Below, piece by piece: positions 49,206 through 64,000 of a stretch of 64,000 bases of DNA (its first letter is position 1; each line of letters begins with the position of its first letter). This DNA comes from Longimicrobiales bacterium (GTDB lineage: Bacteria > Gemmatimonadota > Gemmatimonadetes > Longimicrobiales > Gaopeijiaceae): NCBI GenBank assembly GCA_965248195.1, contig CBDFIQ010000002.1:480001-544000 (forward strand), read 5' to 3'. The position numbers were made by a program, and so were the translations under genes. Below the pieces are notes generated by a model, which saw only the letters and a list, made by a program, of their open reading frames with translations, was not told the DNA's origin and searched no databases.

Positions 49206-50581
49206 GGTAGTGTCCCTAGATTTGTGTAAAAGCGGATAAGCTGGACAGGAGGGAAAGAAAAACGGAAGCTCCTCTGTTGTTGTTCACTGTCACATGAACC
49301 CGGGAGTCCGGGTCTGCAGAGCAGGCTCGGAACCGGAGAGGAGCTTCCGATGCAAGAGATTGTGGAGATCGGTCGGGCCACGCAAGACGAGCTACGCGAT
49401 GATTTGCGCGAGCTGTTTCAAGGCGCGATCCGGCTGACGCTCGAGATGGTGCTGGAAGAGGAGCTGAAGGCCATGGTAGGTGCACGCCGCTTCGAGCGGG
49501 TGGGAAGCCGGAAGGACCATAGGAACGGCACATACCTGAGGCGGCTGCTGACGAGCCTGGGGCAGATCGAGGTCGCCATGCCCCGGAGCCGGGACAACGG
49601 TTCGCCGGCCGACGTGATCGGCCGCTACCAGCGCAGGAGCCCCGAGCTCGACGAGATGATGGTCGAGGCGTATGTGAGCGGCGTGTCACAGCGCAAGATG
49701 GGCGACGTCACCGAGGCGCTGATGGGCGAGCGTGTTGGGCGCTCGACGGTGAGTCGTGTGGCAAAACGGCTCGACGAGGCCGTGGAAGGGCTGCGCCGTG
49801 CGCCGATCGAGGGGCCTCACCCCTATCTGTACCTGGACGCCACGTTCTTGGACGCCCGCTGGGCCCGCAAAGTCGAGAACGTGAGTGCGCTCGTGGCGTA
49901 TGCAGTGGGCCCTGAGGGTCACCGACGGCTCCTGGCCGTCACGCTGGGCGCTGAGGAGTCGCAGCAGAGCTGGTCGGAGCTCCTCGAGCAACTCCAGGAC
50001 CGCGGCCTCGGCGGTGTCGAGCTCGTGATCGCCGATGAGCACGCAGGCCTGGCAGCTGCGGTCCGCCGCTTCCTGCCCGAGGCACGCCGTCAGAGGTGTA
50101 CGGTCCATCTGCAGCGTAATGTGGGGGCGAGGGTCCCCCACCGCTTACGCAAGCGCGTGGCGCGTGAGGTCTCGGTGATCTTCCAGACATCCGGACTCGC
50201 CGAGGCGAAGAAGCTCCTGGGCGAGTTCGGCGCACGCTGGAAGAAGGAGCTGCCCGAGGCCGTGGAGGTCCTGGAGCGGGGCTTCGGGGCAGCGACGCAG
50301 TTCTACGCGTTCCCCGAGGCGCACTGGCCCCGGCTGCGTACCACCAACAGCCTCGAGCGGCTGCACGGCGAGATCAAACGCAGGATCAAGGCCGCCGGCG
50401 CCTTCCCGGACCGGGCCAGCGCCCTCAGGCTCATCACGGCCGTCGCACTCAGGACCACACACGTCTGGGGCGACCGGCGTTACCTCGACCTCTCACTCCT
50501 CCAGAAACAGGAGGTCGCCCAAGCAGCCTAGCCGAAGGCGAGGAGCTTCCTCCGCTTTTACACACAAATCGGGACTTGACC
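49206..50581 (+). mobile_element. complete IS256-family insertion sequence (1376 bp)
   Basis: 31-bp imperfect IRs GGTAGTGTCCCTAGATTTGTGTAAAAGCGGA / revcomp GGTCAAGTCCCGATTTGTGTGTAAAAGCGGA; 9-bp TSD CCCCGCGAG at 49197-49205 and 50582-50590. Confidence 0.95.
49350..50531 (+). CDS. IS256 (Mutator) family transposase
   Basis: RNGTYLR.L.T..G.I, YLYLDA, IADEHAGL, QRCTVH, RTTNSLER..GEIKRR. Confidence 0.96.
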   Translation: MQEIVEIGRATQDELRDDLRELFQGAIRLTLEMVLEEELKAMVGARRFERVGSRKDHRNGTYLRRLLTSLGQIEVAMPRSRDNGSPADVIGRYQRRSPELDEMMVEAYVSGVSQRKMGDVTEALMGERVGRSTVSRVAKRLDEAVEGLRRAPIEGPHPYLYLDATFLDARWARKVENVSALVAYAVGPEGHRRLLAVTLGAEESQQSWSELLEQLQDRGLGGVELVIADEHAGLAAAVRRFLPEARRQRCTVHLQRNVGARVPHRLRKRVAREVSVIFQTSGLAEAKKLLGEFGARWKKELPEAVEVLERGFGAATQFYAFPEAHWPRLRTTNSLERLHGEIKRRIKAAGAFPDRASALRLITAVALRTTHVWGDRRYLDLSLLQKQEVAQAA

Positions 50582-50794
50582 CCCCGCGAGAGCGGCAGCC
50601 GCATTAACGCGTGGCTCGACCGCCTCAGCGAGATGATGGTGGTCCGTCACCGGACGGTCCTGGCAGGCATGGCCGTGGCCACCGTGGGTCTGTCCTTCGC
50701 GGTGACCACGCTGGAAGTGAACGACCACTTCTACTACAATCGAGCAAGTACAACACTCTGTGGTCTGGCATATGGCAAACCGTTGTTTTCGCTG

Positions 50795-52063
50795 TCACCC
50801 CTGGATCCTCCTTTCGATGTACTGAACGGCGGCCCGGTAGGTGTCAGGAATAAGGTGGGCGTAGGTCTCCTCGACGACCTTGGTCGTGTCACCTAGCAGG
50901 GTGGCGATCACATTGAGCGGAACGCCATCCTGGGCCAGCCATGAGGCGTAAGTGTGACGACCCGAATGCAGCGTGAGCCCGTCGCCTTCCCTCCCGTACT
51001 TGATCCCGGCCAGCTCGAAAGCGTCCTGGGTCCAGCGAGCCGAGGTGCCGGCCGTCACAGGCTGATCTCCGCGATGAGGGCTCAGAATCAAGTACCGCTC
51101 CCCGGCATACCCTCTGCGGAGGTGGTCTTCGATGATCGTGACGAGGCTCTCGGTGATCGGCACATCCCTTTCACCGCGCCGCGTCTTCGGCCTCCAGGGA
51201 TAGGCATCCTTGCGGGACTGGACGCGGATGAGCGGTTCGGGGCTCTCCAGAAGCACATCCACGTCGGTGCGCAGATGTAGAATCTCGCCTTGGCGCAGTC
51301 CGGCGAGGAACGCAATCGCGATCATCGCCCGGCTGGGGATCCCAACCATACTGCGGTCCAGGTCCATCCACTCCGGCGGAGTCAGGAACACAGCCCGTGT
51401 CGGCCGGATCTCGGGCATCTCGACGCCCTTCCAGGGGTTGCTACGGATCGCGGGCTGTACGTTGAGGCGAGCGAGCAGGTCGGCCTCCTCGTCCATAACC
51501 ATGCTCCAGAGTGCCCCGCACACGACCTGGCAAGCCCCTTGGCTGGCAGGTGCCCACGGACGTCCCCCGGTGCTTGCTTTCGGGCCGTGCAGGTACGCGC
51601 GCGCCTCGTCGACCGTCAGCTCTTCCATAGGGAAGTCCGAGCCAAGGTCTCTCTCAAGGTTCCCGAGAACCGTCCGATACTTATTGATGGTGGCCCTGCT
51701 GCGTGTGGCCTCTTTGAGCCTCAGGAATCGTTCGATCGCTGGCCCGAGCCGGGGGGAGTCGGAGCCCATGCGCCGCAGCTTGGTGGCGTCGCCGTTACGT
51801 AGCGCGGCCTGCGCGTCGGTGATGTGCATGTCGCCACGGCGGATCGCCTCAAGCACGTTCCAGTCGCCACGATCCATGAGCTGAGTCAGGACGGTATGAC
51901 GCTCGGTGGCCACATCCCGATCGCCGGTCCTGAGCGAAATCGCGAGCCGCCCGCCGTTGAACCGCGAGTGCCGACGGTCGAAGTAGGCGCGGCCAGCTCG
52001 CCATACGAGGCCCTTGGGGGCACGTGAGCGCTTTCTAGGACTCACTGCCCACGAGCTCCTCAC
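50795..52063 (-). CDS. int: tyrosine recombinase / phage integrase
   Basis: AGLRQGE (R), KTRRG (K), LHSGRHTYAS (HxxR), LLGD, TYAH (Y); likely start GTG near 52045. Confidence 0.92.
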   Translation of the reverse strand: MRSSWAVSPRKRSRAPKGLVWRAGRAYFDRRHSRFNGGRLAISLRTGDRDVATERHTVLTQLMDRGDWNVLEAIRRGDMHITDAQAALRNGDATKLRRMGSDSPRLGPAIERFLRLKEATRSRATINKYRTVLGNLERDLGSDFPMEELTVDEARAYLHGPKASTGGRPWAPASQGACQVVCGALWSMVMDEEADLLARLNVQPAIRSNPWKGVEMPEIRPTRAVFLTPPEWMDLDRSMVGIPSRAMIAIAFLAGLRQGEILHLRTDVDVLLESPEPLIRVQSRKDAYPWRPKTRRGERDVPITESLVTIIEDHLRRGYAGERYLILSPHRGDQPVTAGTSARWTQDAFELAGIKYGREGDGLTLHSGRHTYASWLAQDGVPLNVIATLLGDTTKVVEETYAHLIPDTYRAAVQYIERRIQG

Positions 52064-54164: not shown

Positions 54165-55151
54165 TCACGCGGGCTGCGCGTCCAGCGCCCGCTTCTGTAG
54201 GTCCACGATCGCCTCGCGGATTGCACGGCCCTGCTTCTGCTCGATGGCCACGTCCAGTTCGTCTGCTTCCTGGTCCGTGACTACGGGTGTCCCGCCGAGC
54301 GTGTCGAGCAGTTCTTTCAACTGCCGCACCTCGCCCCGTGTCGGTGGCTTGTCGAGATCCTCGTCCTTGTCCGGGCTCCCTGCGAGGTCCTCCGCCATGC
54401 GCTCGGACTTCGACGGGAGCGGCTCGCTGCCGATGACCTCGGCAGGCGTGAGTGAGCCCGTCGATACCGCGTCGTCCTTGGCGATCGCGCGCTCTAGCTC
54501 GGTGCTCATCGGGAGAGATTTGCAGAGGCGCCGGACGGCGGACTTCTTCCACATCTCCGACTCCCAATCGACCCACGGCCCGCGTTGCGAGGCCTTCGAA
54601 GCGGCCCTGATCTTGTTCACTTCCTCGCGAGTCAGAACGACGAACTTTGAGTGCCCGTTGTTGAAGCGTGCGACCGCGTAGGCGTAGGTCAGAACGCCCT
54701 CGTCGTCGGGCCTGCCCTCAGCGGGCTTGTGCGTGAGCACTGGATCAAGCCCGAGGCGGTATTCGAACTCGTCGCCATCGCGTACGACCTGCGGGTCGAT
54801 GTCGTAGACGCGCCCGCCTCGGTAGACCAGCTCGGCCATGCCCCGATAGCCGACTTGGAGTTGGACCTCCTTCTGCTGCGTGTTCTTGTTGTAGTACGGC
54901 ACGAGGTACGCTTGGCCGAGCACACCGGTCGGCTCGAGCCCGAGCCCGCCCACCTCGATCAGAGCGAGTGCCATGCTCTCCTGGCTGCATTCGAGGAGCG
55001 CCGGATTCTTGAGCACGGCGGTGATCGCGACCTTGATGAGCCGCTCGGCCGTGACGTGCTCCGCGATGACCTTCTGGATCGCGGAGGCCTCGCCCTCGAG
55101 GAAGGTCTGGAGCCCCCCTACCATGTCTCTATTCGCTAATGCTGTTCCCAT
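54165..55151 (-). CDS. recT: RecT-family single-strand annealing recombinase
   Basis: LLECSQES, GLEP..LGQAYLVPY, QLQVGYRG..ELVYR, GPW..WESEMWKKSAVRRLCK.LP. Confidence 0.93.
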   Translation of the reverse strand: MGTALANRDMVGGLQTFLEGEASAIQKVIAEHVTAERLIKVAITAVLKNPALLECSQESMALALIEVGGLGLEPTGVLGQAYLVPYYNKNTQQKEVQLQVGYRGMAELVYRGGRVYDIDPQVVRDGDEFEYRLGLDPVLTHKPAEGRPDDEGVLTYAYAVARFNNGHSKFVVLTREEVNKIRAASKASQRGPWVDWESEMWKKSAVRRLCKSLPMSTELERAIAKDDAVSTGSLTPAEVIGSEPLPSKSERMAEDLAGSPDKDEDLDKPPTRGEVRQLKELLDTLGGTPVVTDQEADELDVAIEQKQGRAIREAIVDLQKRALDAQPA

Positions 55152-55160
55152 GAGGTCCTC

Positions 55161-56273
55161 CTAGAAAAACTTGGGCAGGAACCGCCGCGTGCCCGGCTTC
55201 GTCGTGGTGTGCTTCTCGAGCACTCCCTCGACCTCGTCCGGCGTAATCCCGCGAAGTTCCGCCATCGTGGATAGTTCGATGAACGCGGCCTTGTGGTCGG
55301 TCACGTCGCCGTCCTTCGTCTTCTTCCAAGTGATCTTGAAGCCGGGGCCGATGAGCGTAGCGAGTTCGCCCATCCTGTCCTTCACGGCGTTCTCGGCTGC
55401 GGTCTTCGCCGTCTGTGCTTCCTTGGCCGCTTCGCGGGCGTCGTGCAGATCGTCGGCTAACACAGCGTATTTGTGGCGACCGTCGACTGTCAGTTCGGAA
55501 TCCGGCTTGTGTTCCGGATAGAAGATGCCGAGCGCCTTCTTGCCGGTCTCGGTATTCATCGCCTCGGGCGGGTGCCGTCGCTGGATCCTGCTCCAGAACA
55601 ACATCTCCTCGTCAAGGATCTTGGCCTGTAGGTCCGCATTCGGATCTACCGTGAACACCCGGAACTTCTGGCCACCGACCAGCGTCGGTACGATCACCGG
55701 TAGGGCCTCCCCTGTGATGCTCTCGTAGACCATCGACTCGTGCTGGCACTGGACGATGTACTCGTCGGGGATCTCGTCGGTGAGCTCGTCGTCCAGATTC
55801 CAGCGCTCGGCCATCCAGGTGCCCGCCGTCTTGGCTTCGACGAGCGCAATCACCTCGCCCGGACGGTAGCCGGCGTTCCCCAGCACCAACCCGTCCAGAT
55901 GACAGCCGATGAAATCGTGGTCGGCGTGGCGGAGCGTGTCGAGGCGTGCCTCCTCCTCCGGCGCTGCGGGGCCTTGCCACCCGTCCGGGTGGAACCGCAC
56001 GACCTCGTCAGCGCGGTTGCGCCCTACGATGACGTGACCGGAGCGCGTGGCGTACTGCTGCAGGATCACGGGCTCGAGGATCAGCCCCCACTCGGCCGGC
56101 TCGCTCATCTCGCCGCGCTCTGTCAGCCCGAGCTTATCCAGATAGAGATCGAGCGGCGTGCTGCCCTCCCATGGACTGAGCCCCATCACCTTCGGGGCAT
56201 CCGAGCCGCCGATCAGGGTGCTTCGAACAGCTGGATCTGATGCGGGACCGCGTACGCTCGTCGCCGTGCTCAT
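55161..56273 (-). CDS. YqaJ / lambda-exonuclease family protein
   Basis: IGGSDAP.VMG.SPW, LYLDK, EWG..LEP.I, HLDG, VEAKT, IPDEY..QCQH; adjacent to recT. Confidence 0.92.
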   Translation of the reverse strand: MSTATSVRGPASDPAVRSTLIGGSDAPKVMGLSPWEGSTPLDLYLDKLGLTERGEMSEPAEWGLILEPVILQQYATRSGHVIVGRNRADEVVRFHPDGWQGPAAPEEEARLDTLRHADHDFIGCHLDGLVLGNAGYRPGEVIALVEAKTAGTWMAERWNLDDELTDEIPDEYIVQCQHESMVYESITGEALPVIVPTLVGGQKFRVFTVDPNADLQAKILDEEMLFWSRIQRRHPPEAMNTETGKKALGIFYPEHKPDSELTVDGRHKYAVLADDLHDAREAAKEAQTAKTAAENAVKDRMGELATLIGPGFKITWKKTKDGDVTDHKAAFIELSTMAELRGITPDEVEGVLEKHTTTKPGTRRFLPKFF

Positions 56274-59173: not shown

Positions 59174-59449
59174 TCACGATGCCACCTCCGCTGGCTTCGG
59201 TGCAGACCCGTCAATGAGTTGATCGACCTGTTCCCGAGTCAGGCCGAGACGCTCGGCAAGCGCGTCCCGGATGTCGTCGTAGCGCCGACGCCCCTGGAGA
59301 CACATGCTCACTTCCTCGATGTACCGACCGAGGTACCGCGCAAAATCCCGGTACGTCTCGTATCCGGCCTCGCGCATGAGCGCCTTTAGTTGATCGGCCC
59401 CCGTCATGCCGTCGAGGATGCGGCGCTCTACTTCGTTGATCTTGGCCAT
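59174..59449 (-). CDS. Cro-like HTH repressor
   Basis: LKALMREAG..YRDFARYLG..EEVSMCLQGRR; divergent from cI. Confidence 0.8.
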   Translation of the reverse strand: MAKINEVERRILDGMTGADQLKALMREAGYETYRDFARYLGRYIEEVSMCLQGRRRYDDIRDALAERLGLTREQVDQLIDGSAPKPAEVAS

Positions 59450-59559: not shown

Positions 59560-60498
59560 TTGTCAAGAGGCGTATTGACGGTGAACCGTGAATTGGCATT
59601 CCGGGAGAGACTGGCCGAAGCGATTCGGCTATCCGGCCTTCAGAAGCAAGAAATCGCCAGCACACTGGAGATTAGGAGGTCGACGATCTCGTCATGGTTG
59701 AGTACAGGCGAAAGCGGCACACTTCCCCGCACAGACCAGCTTTTGCGGTTAGTCGGTATTTTAGGGATCTCCAGCCATTGGCTACTTACCGGCGAGGGTC
59801 CGATCGTTCCCGACCTGGTAAGAGACCGACGTATGATTGCGATGCACGGCGTCCTAAGTGCTACTCCAGAGCAACTGGCGGAGCTGATTGAGCTGATCGA
59901 ACCGTCAGCGGCCGTCAGTGATAACGACAACGGAGCAACCGATCCGGCGGCCTCACGCGAGGAGCTGGAAGCCGCGCTCCAGCGCATTACGGAAGAGCAC
60001 GACCGCCTCCGGGCTCAGGTGTCAGGAGGCCCCGAGCTCCCGGACCCCGACGTGTCCCCGATCCAGTCAGCGCCGGGGTGGCGGGACGAAGACTACGAGA
60101 CCGTGAGACGCTACGAGTCCGAGGATGTAGCGCTCGCGGCGGGAACCGGCACATTCGCCGACCAAGAACCCGTCGCAGGTGAGGTCAAATTCCGCACAAG
60201 CTGGCTGCGGGAGCACCACCTGAGGGCCAATGACCTCTTTCTGGTCGATGTCTTGGGCGATAGTATGGAGCCCACGATCTGCGACGGAGACTCGGCGCTA
60301 GTTGATGAGACCCACAGATCACCACGCAGCGGCAAGATCTACGCACTGCGTACGGGAGACGGTCCACTCGTCAAGCGGCTGCGGAAGCGTGACCACCGCT
60401 GGTGGGCGGACAGCGACAACGATAAGTACGAGCCCCAGCCGCTCGACGATGTAGCCCGAATCCTAGGGCGCGTCGTCTGGTGGGCGCACACGGATTAG
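59560..60498 (+). CDS. CI-like repressor (HTH + S24 autopeptidase)
   Basis: LQKQEIA..LEIRRSTISSW, SHWLLTGEG; LAAG cleavage site, GDSMEP (Ser), LVKRL (Lys), ILGRVVW; start may be GTG 59581. Confidence 0.92.
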   Translation: MSRGVLTVNRELAFRERLAEAIRLSGLQKQEIASTLEIRRSTISSWLSTGESGTLPRTDQLLRLVGILGISSHWLLTGEGPIVPDLVRDRRMIAMHGVLSATPEQLAELIELIEPSAAVSDNDNGATDPAASREELEAALQRITEEHDRLRAQVSGGPELPDPDVSPIQSAPGWRDEDYETVRRYESEDVALAAGTGTFADQEPVAGEVKFRTSWLREHHLRANDLFLVDVLGDSMEPTICDGDSALVDETHRSPRSGKIYALRTGDGPLVKRLRKRDHRWWADSDNDKYEPQPLDDVARILGRVVWWAHTD

Positions 60499-60571
60499 GG
60501 GAGATGTTTCACTAACGGCTATCCCCCCATGGCGCACAATAATGGCGCACAATAGAGGAGGGTTGTTACCA

Positions 60572-61075
60572 ATGAGAAAGGTTGACGCAGTTCGAGGACT
60601 CTCCGTTTTCGCTCTCGCGATCTCGGTAGTTGGATGTGGCACGATGTTCGGCGGCACTACCAAGAATATCTCAGTCACGTCCGCGCCATCAGCCGCAACG
60701 ATCACGACAAACCCCAGTACAGCCGTTTTCACAACTCCAACCACTCTAAATCTTCAGCGCAAGAACGAATACACACTTATCGCCCGGAGGGATGGGTACA
60801 ACGAAGCTCAGTTCCAGATTCGTAAGTCTATGCGAGCCGGGCCGCTCATTCTGGATATTCTATTCACGGGCCTGCTCGGAGTGATCGTGGACGCCGCCAC
60901 TGGCGGCTGGTGGGACCTCAATCCCGAGGATGTGACCCTCGTCCTTGAGCGCGTGGACGACAGCGTCGATGGCCCGGTTGCGATCGAGGTATCCATCAGT
61001 TCGTCGCGAAACGACCCTGGCTCTATGGTGATCGACGCTACCGAACCGGTCCAGATCGAACTTATCGCGAACTAA
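60572..61075 (+). CDS. PEGA-like lipoprotein (accessory cargo)
   Basis: GAGGAGG RBS; VVGC lipobox, CGTMFGG, ISVTSAPSAA, TTPTTL.L, IVDAATG. Confidence 0.8.
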   Translation: MRKVDAVRGLSVFALAISVVGCGTMFGGTTKNISVTSAPSAATITTNPSTAVFTTPTTLNLQRKNEYTLIARRDGYNEAQFQIRKSMRAGPLILDILFTGLLGVIVDAATGGWWDLNPEDVTLVLERVDDSVDGPVAIEVSISSSRNDPGSMVIDATEPVQIELIAN

Positions 61076-61084
61076 CGGGGTGGT

Positions 61085-61228
61085 GGTCCACTGGTCAAGC
61101 GGCTTCGCAAGCGCGACCATCGCTGGTGGGCGGATAGCGACAACGAAGAGTACGAGCCGCAGCCGCTCGAGGATCGAGCCCGAATCATGGGCCGCGTCGT
61201 CTGGTGGGCGCACACGGAGGAGGGGTGA
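61085..61228 (+). repeat. second copy of the cI 3' end (orphan S24 C-terminal fragment)
   Basis: Aligns ungapped to 60361-60494 with 15 mismatches in 134 nt, 8 of them synonymous: GPLVKRLRKRDHRWWADSDNEEYEPQPLEDRARIMGRVVWWAHTEEG*. Confidence 0.92.
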
Positions 61229-61275
61229 GGGCGGCCGCCTATCCCCCCCTGGTGGAAAACGAATAGGAGGGTGTC

Positions 61276-61335
61276 GTGGCACTTCAACCATGCCGCGAGT
61301 GAGGCAAGGAAATCAGTACCGAAGCTACCTGCTCC
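61276..61335 (+). pseudogene. zinc-ribbon protein N-terminal stub
   Basis: AGGAGG RBS + GTG: MALQPCRE*GKEISTEATC resembles MAL..C.ECGKEIS..A..C, with Cys replaced by TGA at 61300-61302 and then truncated. Confidence 0.6.
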
Positions 61336-61470
61336 AAGATCGCTTCCGCGTTGTCGCAACCACAGCAATCGATCGCATGCCGAGTTATCTGAGCGGCCAA
61401 CCCGCTCTAATTCTCCCTCGACCCCGACCGTAAGAAGCCTACGCTGACTACCCGCCCAAAGGAGCCCCAG

Positions 61471-62664
61471 ATGTCTGAGAAGCACAACCAGACACGGTCT
61501 GTCCTCCGAAGCCTGATAGTCTGTGCTGTCGGCCTTCTCCCAGGCATGGCGTGGCCCTGGGCAACGCTCACACCCCAGGTCCCCTCCGACGCTCCCGTGA
61601 CCACGGACGCGCATTTCCATATGCTCGACTTCCTACAAAACGGTGAATATCTGGACGACGGTAGCCTGGTCTATAGTTCTCCAGCCAACACCCTCCCCTC
61701 GGGCGAGCGGGGCAAGCGTATTGAGGCCGTGTTTTGGGCGATGGATCAGGCGAACGTGAGCCACGCGGTCATCATGGGCATGCCGTTCCTAAAGAAGTGG
61801 GGATTGAGTGATGCCTTCCGACCCCAATACTACCTCGACAGCAGCTCACGCATGGTGCGTGCACGCGACACGGACTACGTCTTGGCTCTGGCCATTGAGG
61901 ACTACCGGCGCACGCACGGTACCGCAGCCGACGCTGAACTTGCCCGTTTGTTTCCGTCTATCTCTGGGTTCGATGGGACCGACCTTGGAGCTGTTGATAT
62001 GATCGTCAAGCGCATCAAAGAATTCCCTGGTGTGTTTAGGGGAATCGGCGAGGCCATGTCGCGCCATGACGACTTGACGAACCTGACCACAGGAGAACGA
62101 CCCCGAGCAGACCACCCCGCGTTCTTCCGAATCTTCGACTTCGCCGGTCGTGTAGGGATGCCGGTCATTATCCATCACAATATCGCCCCCATCTCTGCAA
62201 GCGAGGGGGTGAAGGACCCTGACTATCTCCCCGAGATACTGAGAGCGTTCGAGGAGTTCCCCAACACGACTTTCATCTGGTCTCACGCCGGAATCAGCCG
62301 TCGTATCACGGTGGCTGACCTTCCTGGTATCCTGGATTCGATTCTCGACCGGCACCGGGACCATGTGTACATCGGTCTTTCGTGGGTCGTATACGAGGAC
62401 TATGTATTGAGAGACTTAGACTCTTGGTCAGAGCTCATCCGTCGTTATCCGAACAACTTTGTGATCGGATCGGATGTGGTGGGACGGTACGACGGGTATG
62501 CAACAACGGTCCGTAGGTACGACACGCTTCTCTCGAATCTCGAAGCAGACGTGGCCGACAACGTGGGGCGTGCTAATCTGCTGAGAATCATGCCGCAGGA
62601 TGGGATCACGCTAGATCGCGAGTATGCCTATCCTGAGAACGCGTACACCGGCAACCGGAATTGA
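61471..62664 (+). CDS. amidohydrolase (TIM-barrel, Amidohydro_2-like), exported
   Basis: DAHFH..DFLQ, GIGEAMSRHDDLT, IHHN, WSHAG, IGSDVVG. Confidence 0.82.
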   Translation: MSEKHNQTRSVLRSLIVCAVGLLPGMAWPWATLTPQVPSDAPVTTDAHFHMLDFLQNGEYLDDGSLVYSSPANTLPSGERGKRIEAVFWAMDQANVSHAVIMGMPFLKKWGLSDAFRPQYYLDSSSRMVRARDTDYVLALAIEDYRRTHGTAADAELARLFPSISGFDGTDLGAVDMIVKRIKEFPGVFRGIGEAMSRHDDLTNLTTGERPRADHPAFFRIFDFAGRVGMPVIIHHNIAPISASEGVKDPDYLPEILRAFEEFPNTTFIWSHAGISRRITVADLPGILDSILDRHRDHVYIGLSWVVYEDYVLRDLDSWSELIRRYPNNFVIGSDVVGRYDGYATTVRRYDTLLSNLEADVADNVGRANLLRIMPQDGITLDREYAYPENAYTGNRN

Positions 62665-62674
62665 GACGGACGGG

Positions 62675-62869
62675 GCCTCCGCCTCAGCGGGTTTCTACGA
62701 ATCTCCGTGGGCGAAGCATCCACGGCTCCAGCTTCTGACAATCGAAGAGCTGCTCCAGGGCGGGAGGATCGATTACCCCTCGACACCCGGCACGAACGTC
62801 ACGTACAAGCGGGCACCAAGGAAAGAGAAGCAAACCGCCGAACAGCTGCGTCTCGGAGAAGGGGAATGA
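62675..62869 (+). pseudogene. C-terminal stub of a DNA methyltransferase-restriction endonuclease (Mrr-type) fusion
   Basis: ASAGFYESPWAKHPRLQLLTIEELLQGGRIDYP..NVTYKRAPR resembles the tail of such fusions; no start. Confidence 0.6.
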
Positions 62870-62881
62870 GGCATGCCGCCA

Positions 62882-62920
62882 GGCCGCGTCGTCTGGTGGG
62901 CGCACACGGAGCGGGGGTGA
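62882..62920 (+). repeat. third (short) copy of the cI 3' end
   Basis: GGCCGCGTCGTCTGGTGGGCGCACACGGAG is identical to 61190-61219, then CGGGGGTGA (GRVVWWAHTERG*). Confidence 0.9.
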
Positions 62921-62983
62921 TGATGGGCAAGGAGCGGCAAGTACGTAGGATCTCGGAGCAATGACTCGATCGGAGCGGACCAG

Positions 62984-63208
62984 ATGACGGACACACATCG
63001 CGTCCTGCCCCACCCAGACGGTGGCTGGCAGGTGAAGAGAGACGGGAGAAACCGCGCGTCGAAGCGGACTCGGACGAAGGCCGAAGCCGAGGCAAGCGGT
63101 CGGGAGACCAGCCAGAACCAGCGGACCGAGCTGGCCATCCACCGGAAGGATGGCACGATCGAGCGGCGCGATAGCCACGGGAACGACCCGCCGAGCCGAC
63201 CCGGTTGA
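62984..63208 (+). CDS. DUF2188 domain protein
   Basis: HRVLPHPDGGWQVK..G..RAS..TK.EA...GR..ELAIHRKDG.I..RDSHGNDP. Confidence 0.88.
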   Translation: MTDTHRVLPHPDGGWQVKRDGRNRASKRTRTKAEAEASGRETSQNQRTELAIHRKDGTIERRDSHGNDPPSRPG

Positions 63209-63209
63209 G

Positions 63210-64000
63210 GTGGAGAGCCTAGAGCCTCTGAAAGTCCTGATTTGGGCCAAGACCTACCCCGAACTTTCGAAGAGGCACCGCGAAACGGTTTGCACCGGAG
63301 GATGCCTAGAAGACGGCACGCCAATCCGCCTCTACCCGGTCCCGCTCCGGTATCTCCCTGTCACGAGCCAATACCGACTCTACGACTGGATTTCCGTGCC
63401 GCTTCGCCGCAACTCGATGGACACCCGTCCGGAGAGCTTCCGGGTCGCACAAGGAGTGATGCCGACGACGGTCGGTAAGGCGAGGACGACCCACGGATGG
63501 GAGGCACGGAGGGAGGTCGTGTTCAAACGACAGGATTGGCACTTCGACTGTGCCTCGGACCTGCACGCCGCGCAGGAACGCGCAGGGACCTCGCTCGGAC
63601 TCGTAGCGGTGCGTGACGTTGATCGTGTGAGTGTGTCGTCGAGGCCGGACAGTGATCGCGTTGAGCACCAGGCAAGGTTGCGCACCCTGAGAGCGAACCG
63701 AGACCTGTTCGGGGGTGCCGGTATTCAGAAGGATTTGGAGTTCCTCCCGTGGCGTTTCAAACTCTGGTGGCGCTGCGAGGCCAAGGGATGCGACGGCCAC
63801 TCGGGATCCGTCCTAGACTGGGGGCTCGGCGAGTTGGCGCGCCGCGAGGGACCGGATAGCGCCGAAGCCAAGCTCCGAGAGCTGACCGACCTAGGGCGCT
63901 ACGACCTACGGCTCTTCCTCGGAAACATGAAGATGCGACCTCGGACCTTCAGCATCGTCGGGCTTTGGCATCCGCTGCGCTCTGAGCAGGCCCAGCTCTC
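63210..64000 (+). CDS. conserved hypothetical protein, possibly dual-OB/DUF488-associated (3' end runs off window)
   Basis: Not in ORF track. Open frame from GTG 63210: VLIWAKTYPELS..RETVCTGG...IRLYPVPLRYL...YDWI...DTRPESF...SLGLV...WRC...C..H..VLDW...FLGN...FSIVGLWHP. Confidence 0.75.
   Translation, partial: MESLEPLKVLIWAKTYPELSKRHRETVCTGGCLEDGTPIRLYPVPLRYLPVTSQYRLYDWISVPLRRNSMDTRPESFRVAQGVMPTTVGKARTTHGWEARREVVFKRQDWHFDCASDLHAAQERAGTSLGLVAVRDVDRVSVSSRPDSDRVEHQARLRTLRANRDLFGGAGIQKDLEFLPWRFKLWWRCEAKGCDGHSGSVLDWGLGELARREGPDSAEAKLRELTDLGRYDLRLFLGNMKMRPRTFSIVGLWHPLRSEQAQL

Follow-up and report, generated by a model that had tools for sequence, protein, structure and literature searches.

Repeated repressor gene ends as candidate linkers in the accessory-gene arrays of a temperate phage family in a Longimicrobiales bacterium and its relatives

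The 64,000-nucleotide (nt) stretch of DNA analysed here, referred to as the window, belongs to the genome of a Longimicrobiales bacterium (assembly GCA_965248195.1, contig CBDFIQ010000002.1, positions 480,001 to 544,000; G000:C2:480001-544000 in our numbering, where G000 is the source genome, 92% complete). The locus is a prophage in which the integrase, RecT, YqaJ and cro genes are read leftward, and the cI repressor gene and a row of accessory (cargo) genes behind it are read rightward, pointing towards terminase, portal and capsid genes that are read leftward. Partial copies of the 3' end of cI, which we call tails, recur between the cargo genes. This array was compared with related ones, particularly those at two loci (L049 and L052) of G005, a genome of the same genus that was treated as a sister species. 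Prophage gene calls came from a simple open reading frame caller and are approximate. The array in the window contains the following features:

59581..60498, + strand: cI-type repressor gene with helix-turn-helix (HTH) and S24 peptidase domains (PF00717 E 3e-22, PF07022)
60361..60498, + strand: coding 3' end of cI (copy 1), with the core at 60469-60494
60519..60562, + strand: conserved leader with a C-run and a ribosome-binding site; another shared block, with 7 of 8 matches confined to the vicinity of tails
60572..61075, + strand: cargo 1, lipoprotein gene, weakly PEGA-like (phrog_6823); same gene and tail boundary in G005 (L052)
61085..61228, + strand: partial cI tail, copy 2; 134 nt up to the core end
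61239..61325, + strand: leader and zinc-ribbon gene relic; start at 61276, stop at codon 9; intact relative behind a tail in L052
61471..62664, + strand: cargo 2, amidohydrolase gene (PF04909); 99.9% identical block directly behind a full cI in G005 (L049)
62679..62869, + strand: 3' stub of a gene for a 536-amino-acid (aa) N6/N4 methyltransferase-Mrr protein; deletion joint at 62679, overlap 1 nt
62881..62920, + strand: partial cI tail, copy 3; 30 nt up to the core end; upstream joint as in L049, other cargo behind
62984..63208, + strand: cargo 3a, DUF2188 gene (PF09954 E 5e-21)
63150..64000, + strand: cargo 3b, PDC-M19B-like candidate defence gene, continuing to 64016 (PADLOC E 1e-41 and 8e-15)

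Copy 1 (60361-60494) and copy 2 (61085-61218) differ at 15 of 134 positions, eight of these mismatches being synonymous, without insertions or deletions; the same 26-nt core occurs unchanged at 60469, 61193 and 62885; and a C-run with an AGGAGGG leader lies 3' of both copy 1 and copy 2, all as reported in a preliminary description of the locus. The same description had derived copy 2 from the cI of a sister phage, and copy 2 indeed shows 6 mismatches in 119 nt to the cI of another prophage of the genome (prophage D), compared with 15 to its own cI. A search for further copies found a fourth at C2:550609, 5-7 kb past the window, and the end of another repressor type lies at C2:549392, also 5-7 kb outside. 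With regard to the cargo, the amidohydrolase and DUF2188 assignments were above the Pfam cut-offs, and both the zinc-ribbon and the methyltransferase stub have intact matching genes in G005. The PEGA match of the lipoprotein gene was below the Pfam cut-off (E 0.036), and a gene first listed as a conserved unknown is now matched to PDC-M19B of PADLOC; its convergent DUF488/PDC-M19A partner follows outside the window.

Comparisons of shared flanks showed different cargo in related prophages, with exchange taking place at the tails. In three pairs of loci that include a partial copy, long upstream DNA and the tail boundary are common to both members, and in every one of these pairs the downstream DNA differs: a lipoprotein gene with a 134-nt tail in the window and L052 (715 nt shared upstream), a methyltransferase end with a 30-nt tail in the window and L049 (232 nt), and another repressor with a 69-nt tail in prophages E and F (653 nt). 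In the other direction, copy 2 of the window shares 1457 nt of downstream DNA, at 99.9%, with the unit behind the full cI in L049. Since the upstream unit is shared with L052 and the downstream unit with L049, the order in the window is that of a recombinant of units from two separate G005 prophages. Thus, in three upstream-sharing pairs and one downstream-sharing pair, gain, loss or replacement of genes maps to the repeats, and co-directional units change order between genomes. The tail of the lipoprotein pair is more diverged (9 of 119 nt) than the gene (8 of 536 nt; Fisher p 0.001), which indicates that the tail itself was exchanged. Among seven full alleles, 604 of 1326 site pairs fail the four-gamete test.

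The source genome contains 16 copies of the cI 3' end in six prophage regions, namely 14 matches to a 23-mer and two short copies. All 14 matches had at most two mismatches, none was found at three or four, and a backwards control pattern gave none; the repeats are therefore beyond chance. G005 carries six copies in two prophages, and among 12 genomes of the genus strong matches were found only in these two, most of the others being fragmented assemblies. The exact core pattern also matched Longimicrobiales, Gemmatimonadales, Bryobacterales and Terriglobia records; a match in G015 was dropped, as it lies inside a host region without cI. Seven of 31 cores measured end full repressors and 24 end partial copies, all of which stop at the cI end. 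By gapless extension these measure 15-134 nt, with a median of about 35; the lengths of the three acidobacterial ones, taken against distant alleles, are underestimates.

The catalogue comprises 55 repressor ends in 18 regions of 8 genomes, none of them on the reverse strand. Counted from the gene lists, the ends of full repressors number 14 and the partial ends 41, the latter spread over seven genomes of two phyla, with up to six ends per array; 36 ends are of the window type and 19 of other types (one of these 19 was wrongly labelled window-type by the script, which gave 37). It should be noted that regions outside G000 and G005 were found via the core pattern, which makes the sample biased. 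Two or more ends are present in 13 of the 18 regions, so that relatives carry several tails and not the single one that the preliminary description had considered as a contrary outcome. Of the 37 gaps that separate neighbouring ends, 10 are no longer than 135 nt and hold no cargo, so that tails of unlike type frequently follow each other directly. Partial tails follow five of eight full window-type repressors, and one lipoprotein occurs at three positions in three Bryobacterales arrays. Tail-cargo units were also seen away from cI, upstream of the terminase in region C (L006:4600-5500, C2:3349.7-3350.5k) and behind the lysis genes in region B (L003:17600, C2:2552.6k), in inverted orientation.

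The repressor itself is conserved mainly at its C-terminus. Fifty-nine proteins share the S24 domain at 79-100% identity, and 58 homologues have a median identity to the window cI of 86% over the last 120 aa and 24% over the first 90. The earlier view that copies come from cI alleles of sister phages is supported. That the tails are the resident repressor's own end did not hold for prophages E and F, where the resident repressor is only 39% identical in its S24 part and is followed by a 69-nt window-type tail, nor for arrays with interleaved ends of other types. The 3' end of yet another repressor type, the resident one in L042 and L045, was recognised in a motif that at first looked like a leader; partial copies of it are present in the G000 arrays. 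A profile built from full-length repressor C-termini gave 19 G000 hits of at least 22 bits, all inside the arrays, which amount to 66 kb or 1.4% of the genome; as the arrays were drawn around window-type tails, only three other-type partial ends among the hits are independent. None of 20 S24 loci of other genera with about 10 kb downstream, and none of 23 distant S24 loci (10 with less than 2.5 kb downstream), repeats its own 3' end, and two of these control loci have internal fragments. The exact core was absent from the viral and metagenome contigs searched, protein searches of which found only 33-42% relatives; cultured phages gave only relatives below 60%. Other genera (L118-L137; G016, G188, G157, G117, G397 and G187) have up to nine S24 genes per genome and no tail copies. 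These genes are often followed by methyltransferase-like or other large genes and represent a separate hot-spot family.

None of the contig pieces extends over the entire array, so that the G000 assembly is the basis for the order across tail 2, and a mis-assembly of several strains' prophages had been named earlier as a possible source of the repeats. Contigs from four sequencing studies cover joints of the window, parts without cover in runs X5, X8 and X9 being left out of the evidence. Four joints were found in this way: lipoprotein to tail 2 in X1, as a G005-type allele; tail 2 to amidohydrolase in X5, X8 and X9; amidohydrolase through the stub to tail 3 in X5, with 0 differences, and in part in X9; and tail 3 to DUF2188 in X1 and X5. 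These gene-to-tail joints, together with the same architecture in assemblies of six other genomes, make mis-assembly extremely improbable, even considering that prophage D at its left end and region C at its right end have paired attachment (att) overlaps, a possible assembly cross-over. More fully, the D-left overlap pairs with C-right and the F-left overlap with D-right (C1:358105, C2:3338986, C1:1454270, C1:404407), which may reflect either recombination of prophages D and F or an assembly cross-over. The end of C2 overlaps the reverse of the end of C1, inside prophage F.

Across the arrays, the cargo matches HicAB, HigBA and RelE pairs, DarTG, AbiU2, SocA, RelA/SpoT-like genes, type II and IIG restriction-modification genes, PDC-S33, PDC-S67, PDC-M19A/B, ankyrin and Sel1 repeats, and a large number of lipoprotein-like genes could be assigned to no family (the comparison with Pfam covered 76 of the 124 proteins called and that with PADLOC 50, and some of this cargo is not directly behind a tail). 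Three of six promoter-like sites are on the + strand 5' of toxin-antitoxin pairs and none of the six is inside a tail; as several toxin-antitoxin modules have promoter-like sites of their own, read-through from cI is not required for all cargo. The leader (window 60519-60562 and 61239-61271), at most 100 nt long and ending in the C-run, is common to different lipoprotein genes; it may be a second crossover zone or may pair with the G-rich ribosome-binding site. A gene for a Bpu10I-like restriction endonuclease (L049:9176-10033) runs in frame into a tail and takes its stop codon from it.

The remaining features of the prophage that bear on a mechanism are:

50719..50731, + strand: left attachment site (core GAA-N7-TTC), some 9.7 kb away from the end of cI; identical 7-nt overlap at the right end (C2:572k), where the interrupted host gene resumes
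50795..52045, - strand: tyrosine integrase gene, 416 aa (PF00589, phrog_1); five genome copies, 96-100% identical
54165..55151, - strand: RecT single-strand annealing protein gene, candidate exchange catalyst (PF03837 E 4e-43, phrog_148)
55161..56273, - strand: YqaJ/RecE-like exonuclease gene (PF09588, phrog_434)
59174..59449, - strand: Cro-like HTH gene, divergent from cI (weak HTH matches and position)

The ends of the window prophage share the 7-nt overlap within GAA/GAT-N7-TTC and split a host gene. The five near-identical integrases (window 50719-52045, C1:358k, C1:806k, C1:1454k and C2:286k) are at unrelated GAA-N7-TTC sites with differing 7-nt overlaps, and at some of them the left and right overlaps differ by one base, which suggests that overlap homology is relaxed. 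An insertion sequence (IS) element of the IS256 type lies beside the left attachment site (window 49350-50531), and the same and other elements recur often in arrays. In prophage A, lysis and tail-tip genes are missing from the DNA that separates the array from a short stub of tape-measure type (C2:551.3-552.4k), and the prophage may be defective.

On the basis of these results, we consider it probable that non-homologous joints leave relics of repressor ends, which later serve as linkers for RecT- or RecA-type exchange in the accessory-gene array of a temperate phage family, whose cI points at the lysis-module end. The near-constant S24 domain behind differing DNA-binding heads makes the cI 3' end a shared block in otherwise unlike immunity regions. 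Rare non-homologous joints may fuse a gene end of one phage into the last 15-135 nt of the cI of another, leaving a tail relic 5' of the old cargo; the genome has a Ku gene, a candidate for such joining. Longer relics might be deleted faster or yield a poisoning C-terminal fragment, and shorter ones would be invisible. Homologous exchange within a tail would then replace everything downstream, an outcome that the shared-flank pairs show, and the enzyme is probably phage RecT-type annealing or host RecA acting among co-resident prophages; RecT-like genes are present in prophages A, D and E. Since such an exchange replaces what lies downstream, any cI of the family could receive a tail-ended gene behind it with no loss of its cargo, and tail-ended units could thereby spread and stack. 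The arrays would be kept because lipoproteins, toxin-antitoxin pairs, restriction-modification and Abi-like genes help the lysogen, the first genes being expressed from the cI transcript and others from their own promoters. The minimal pairing length is quoted as 23-27 bp with Red-beta, and RecA is quoted with 31-34 bp (PMC3945230). The former is close to the core length and may be counted in favour of linker exchange.

Several observations weigh against this proposal. Tails of 15-19 nt are shorter than the quoted pairing lengths, and three of eight full window-type repressors have no partial tail in 3.6-9 kb downstream. In both G000 and G005 the lipoprotein gene comes first behind cI and is followed by a tail and a zinc-ribbon-family gene, the two zinc-ribbon-family genes being diverged alleles (76% over 93 nt). 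Joints without a tail also exist: the methyltransferase stub derives from an L049-like array by deletion (1 nt overlap), the amidohydrolase replaced most of the zinc-ribbon gene, and there are many IS elements. No excised allele or circle was found in the assembled contigs; "skip" joints in contigs of other studies, at first candidates for excision, were rejected because other cI alleles explain them. The crowding of joints at the cI end, which is seen in this phage family only and at 0 of 43 other S24 loci, is not explained by the proposal. Finally, each of the four shared-flank pairs has different bases at the four positions 3' of the core, a result not readily predicted by random crossover in the tail.

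These variable bases resemble coupling sequences, as would be left by a dedicated site-specific or site-directed system that inserts cassettes at the repressor end like an integron or a tRNA-end island integrase. It also fits such a system that the two shortest copies begin either exactly at a 7-nt stretch flanked by imperfect inverted arms or 2 nt ahead of it, that 0 of 42 core fourfold-site comparisons differ (only two sites), and that the trait is limited to this phage group. However, the ends of repressor types unlike at the DNA level are used alike, 5' boundaries are scattered over 15-134 nt, the integrase core GAA-N7-TTC is absent from the tail, and searches gave no intact integron integrase (no TIGR02249 hit above cut-off in G000) and no serine resolvase hit. 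Four folds of the given strand were not stable (z -0.29, 1.42, 0.50 and 0.29) and gave no attC-type hairpin, the tails had no Rfam match, and we regard a dedicated inserter as quite unlikely. The phage's own integrase was likewise rejected as the shuffler (its att core is unlike the tail and 9.7 kb away), as were tandem islands at a gene 3' end (0 integrases in 76 scanned of 124 cargo proteins, with varying boundaries) and a Chi-like hot spot, for which the E. coli Chi octamer and three core 8-mers were not over-represented (ratios 0.97-1.12). With regard to a retro-element that would insert 5'-truncated cDNA, G000, at its stated completeness, gave no reverse transcriptase hit (PF00078), and a crude repeat scan for CRISPR targeting of the conserved domain found no array. 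A broken integron-integrase-like gene with two stops (238.7 bits, below cut-off) lies on another contig, far from the arrays (C1:1112697-1113260). Directed gene capture, in which a putative enzyme or break-prone feature makes joints just before the repressor stop codon of any type, also seems unlikely to us; if true, the lysogenic transcript would acquire foreign genes in the form of tail-ended cassettes, which phages of two host phyla would pass to one another, and the system would be a counterpart of the integron that is anchored on the repressor and needs no integrase.

It could also be argued that the tails are no more than passive scars, left by repeated illegitimate insertion and by replacement of immunity regions, and that exchange at them is incidental and no commoner than at any shared sequence. 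The cargo-free gaps, the frequency of non-tail joints and IS elements, and the conserved leader as a second possible crossover zone would all be expected then, and we give this explanation a small chance, as every one of the three long upstream-sharing pairs switches partner at the tail and in one of them the tail is five times more diverged than the attached gene. Retention of the tail as an expression signal for the next gene (ribosome-binding site, RNA processing site or promoter) would account for the G-rich Shine-Dalgarno-like run 3' of most cores and for the common strand of all ends and cargo. It is very unlikely, considering that the tails contain no promoter-like site or Rfam match, that most cargo has its own leader and that stacked tails carry no gene.

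Linker exchange of the kind favoured here has partial parallels. Integrons are co-directional, repeat-separated arrays of accessory, defence-rich genes behind an anchor locus. The arrays resemble them in having co-directional repeat-separated units behind an anchor locus, in an order that varies between genomes, but there is no IntI beside the array and no attC-type fold, the repeats are unequal and units may hold several genes; the earlier comparison with integrons thus stands for layout only. Closer are the PeSL elements of T4-type phages, short repeats between accessory genes that are points of homologous recombination (PMC2839356); that work likened them to integrons and showed mini-circles, with no dedicated recombinase identified. 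In both cases repeats between accessory genes act as exchange points and gene replacement maps to them. PeSL elements, however, are a promoter plus a stem-loop in lytic phages, whereas the tails are coding relics of repressor 3' ends in temperate phages, of variable length and several types, without promoter-like site or stable fold, and known here from assembled contigs. In Island3, an inserted gene (genes 67/68) ends in a copy of the last 60 bp of the upstream gene, and recombination explains its presence or absence (PMC3029335); that is one case in one gene pair, compared with 41 partial, repressor-anchored copies and up to six ends per array. The paratox gene (prx) of Streptococcus pyogenes prophages, conserved beside lysogenic-conversion cargo, is a proposed swap hot spot (PMC2609857), but as one whole gene per prophage it allows replacement, whereas the partial, repeated tails allow addition. 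Mycobacteriophage BPs, with integration-dependent immunity, has attP in the repressor 3' end, which removes 33 residues (PMC4557955). Recombination within the repressor 3' end is common to both; here, however, the att site is beside the integrase, 9.7 kb from the cI end, and a swap alters only the last few residues, which reduces the earlier suggestion that recombination between copies swaps the repressor C-terminus to that extent.

A short conserved sequence at the module edges of otherwise unlike phages, as in boundary or linker mosaicism, is present in these arrays. No description of stacked repressor ends was found in the literature searched, outside which most subscription papers and supplements lie. 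As far as sequence comparison, which supports the exchange, can tell, the arrays are a further form of shuffling mediated by linkers. Whether linker homology or illegitimate joining lets temperate phages acquire and rearrange their accessory genes is an old question, and the arrays would show both steps in one place, the tail being a non-homologous joint and datable scar and the partner switch a later homologous exchange. The tail repeat also offers a search handle for defence cargo (restriction-modification, DarTG, AbiU2, RelA/SpoT-like genes and PDC-M19), and the family-less lipoproteins beside tails are candidates for superinfection exclusion.

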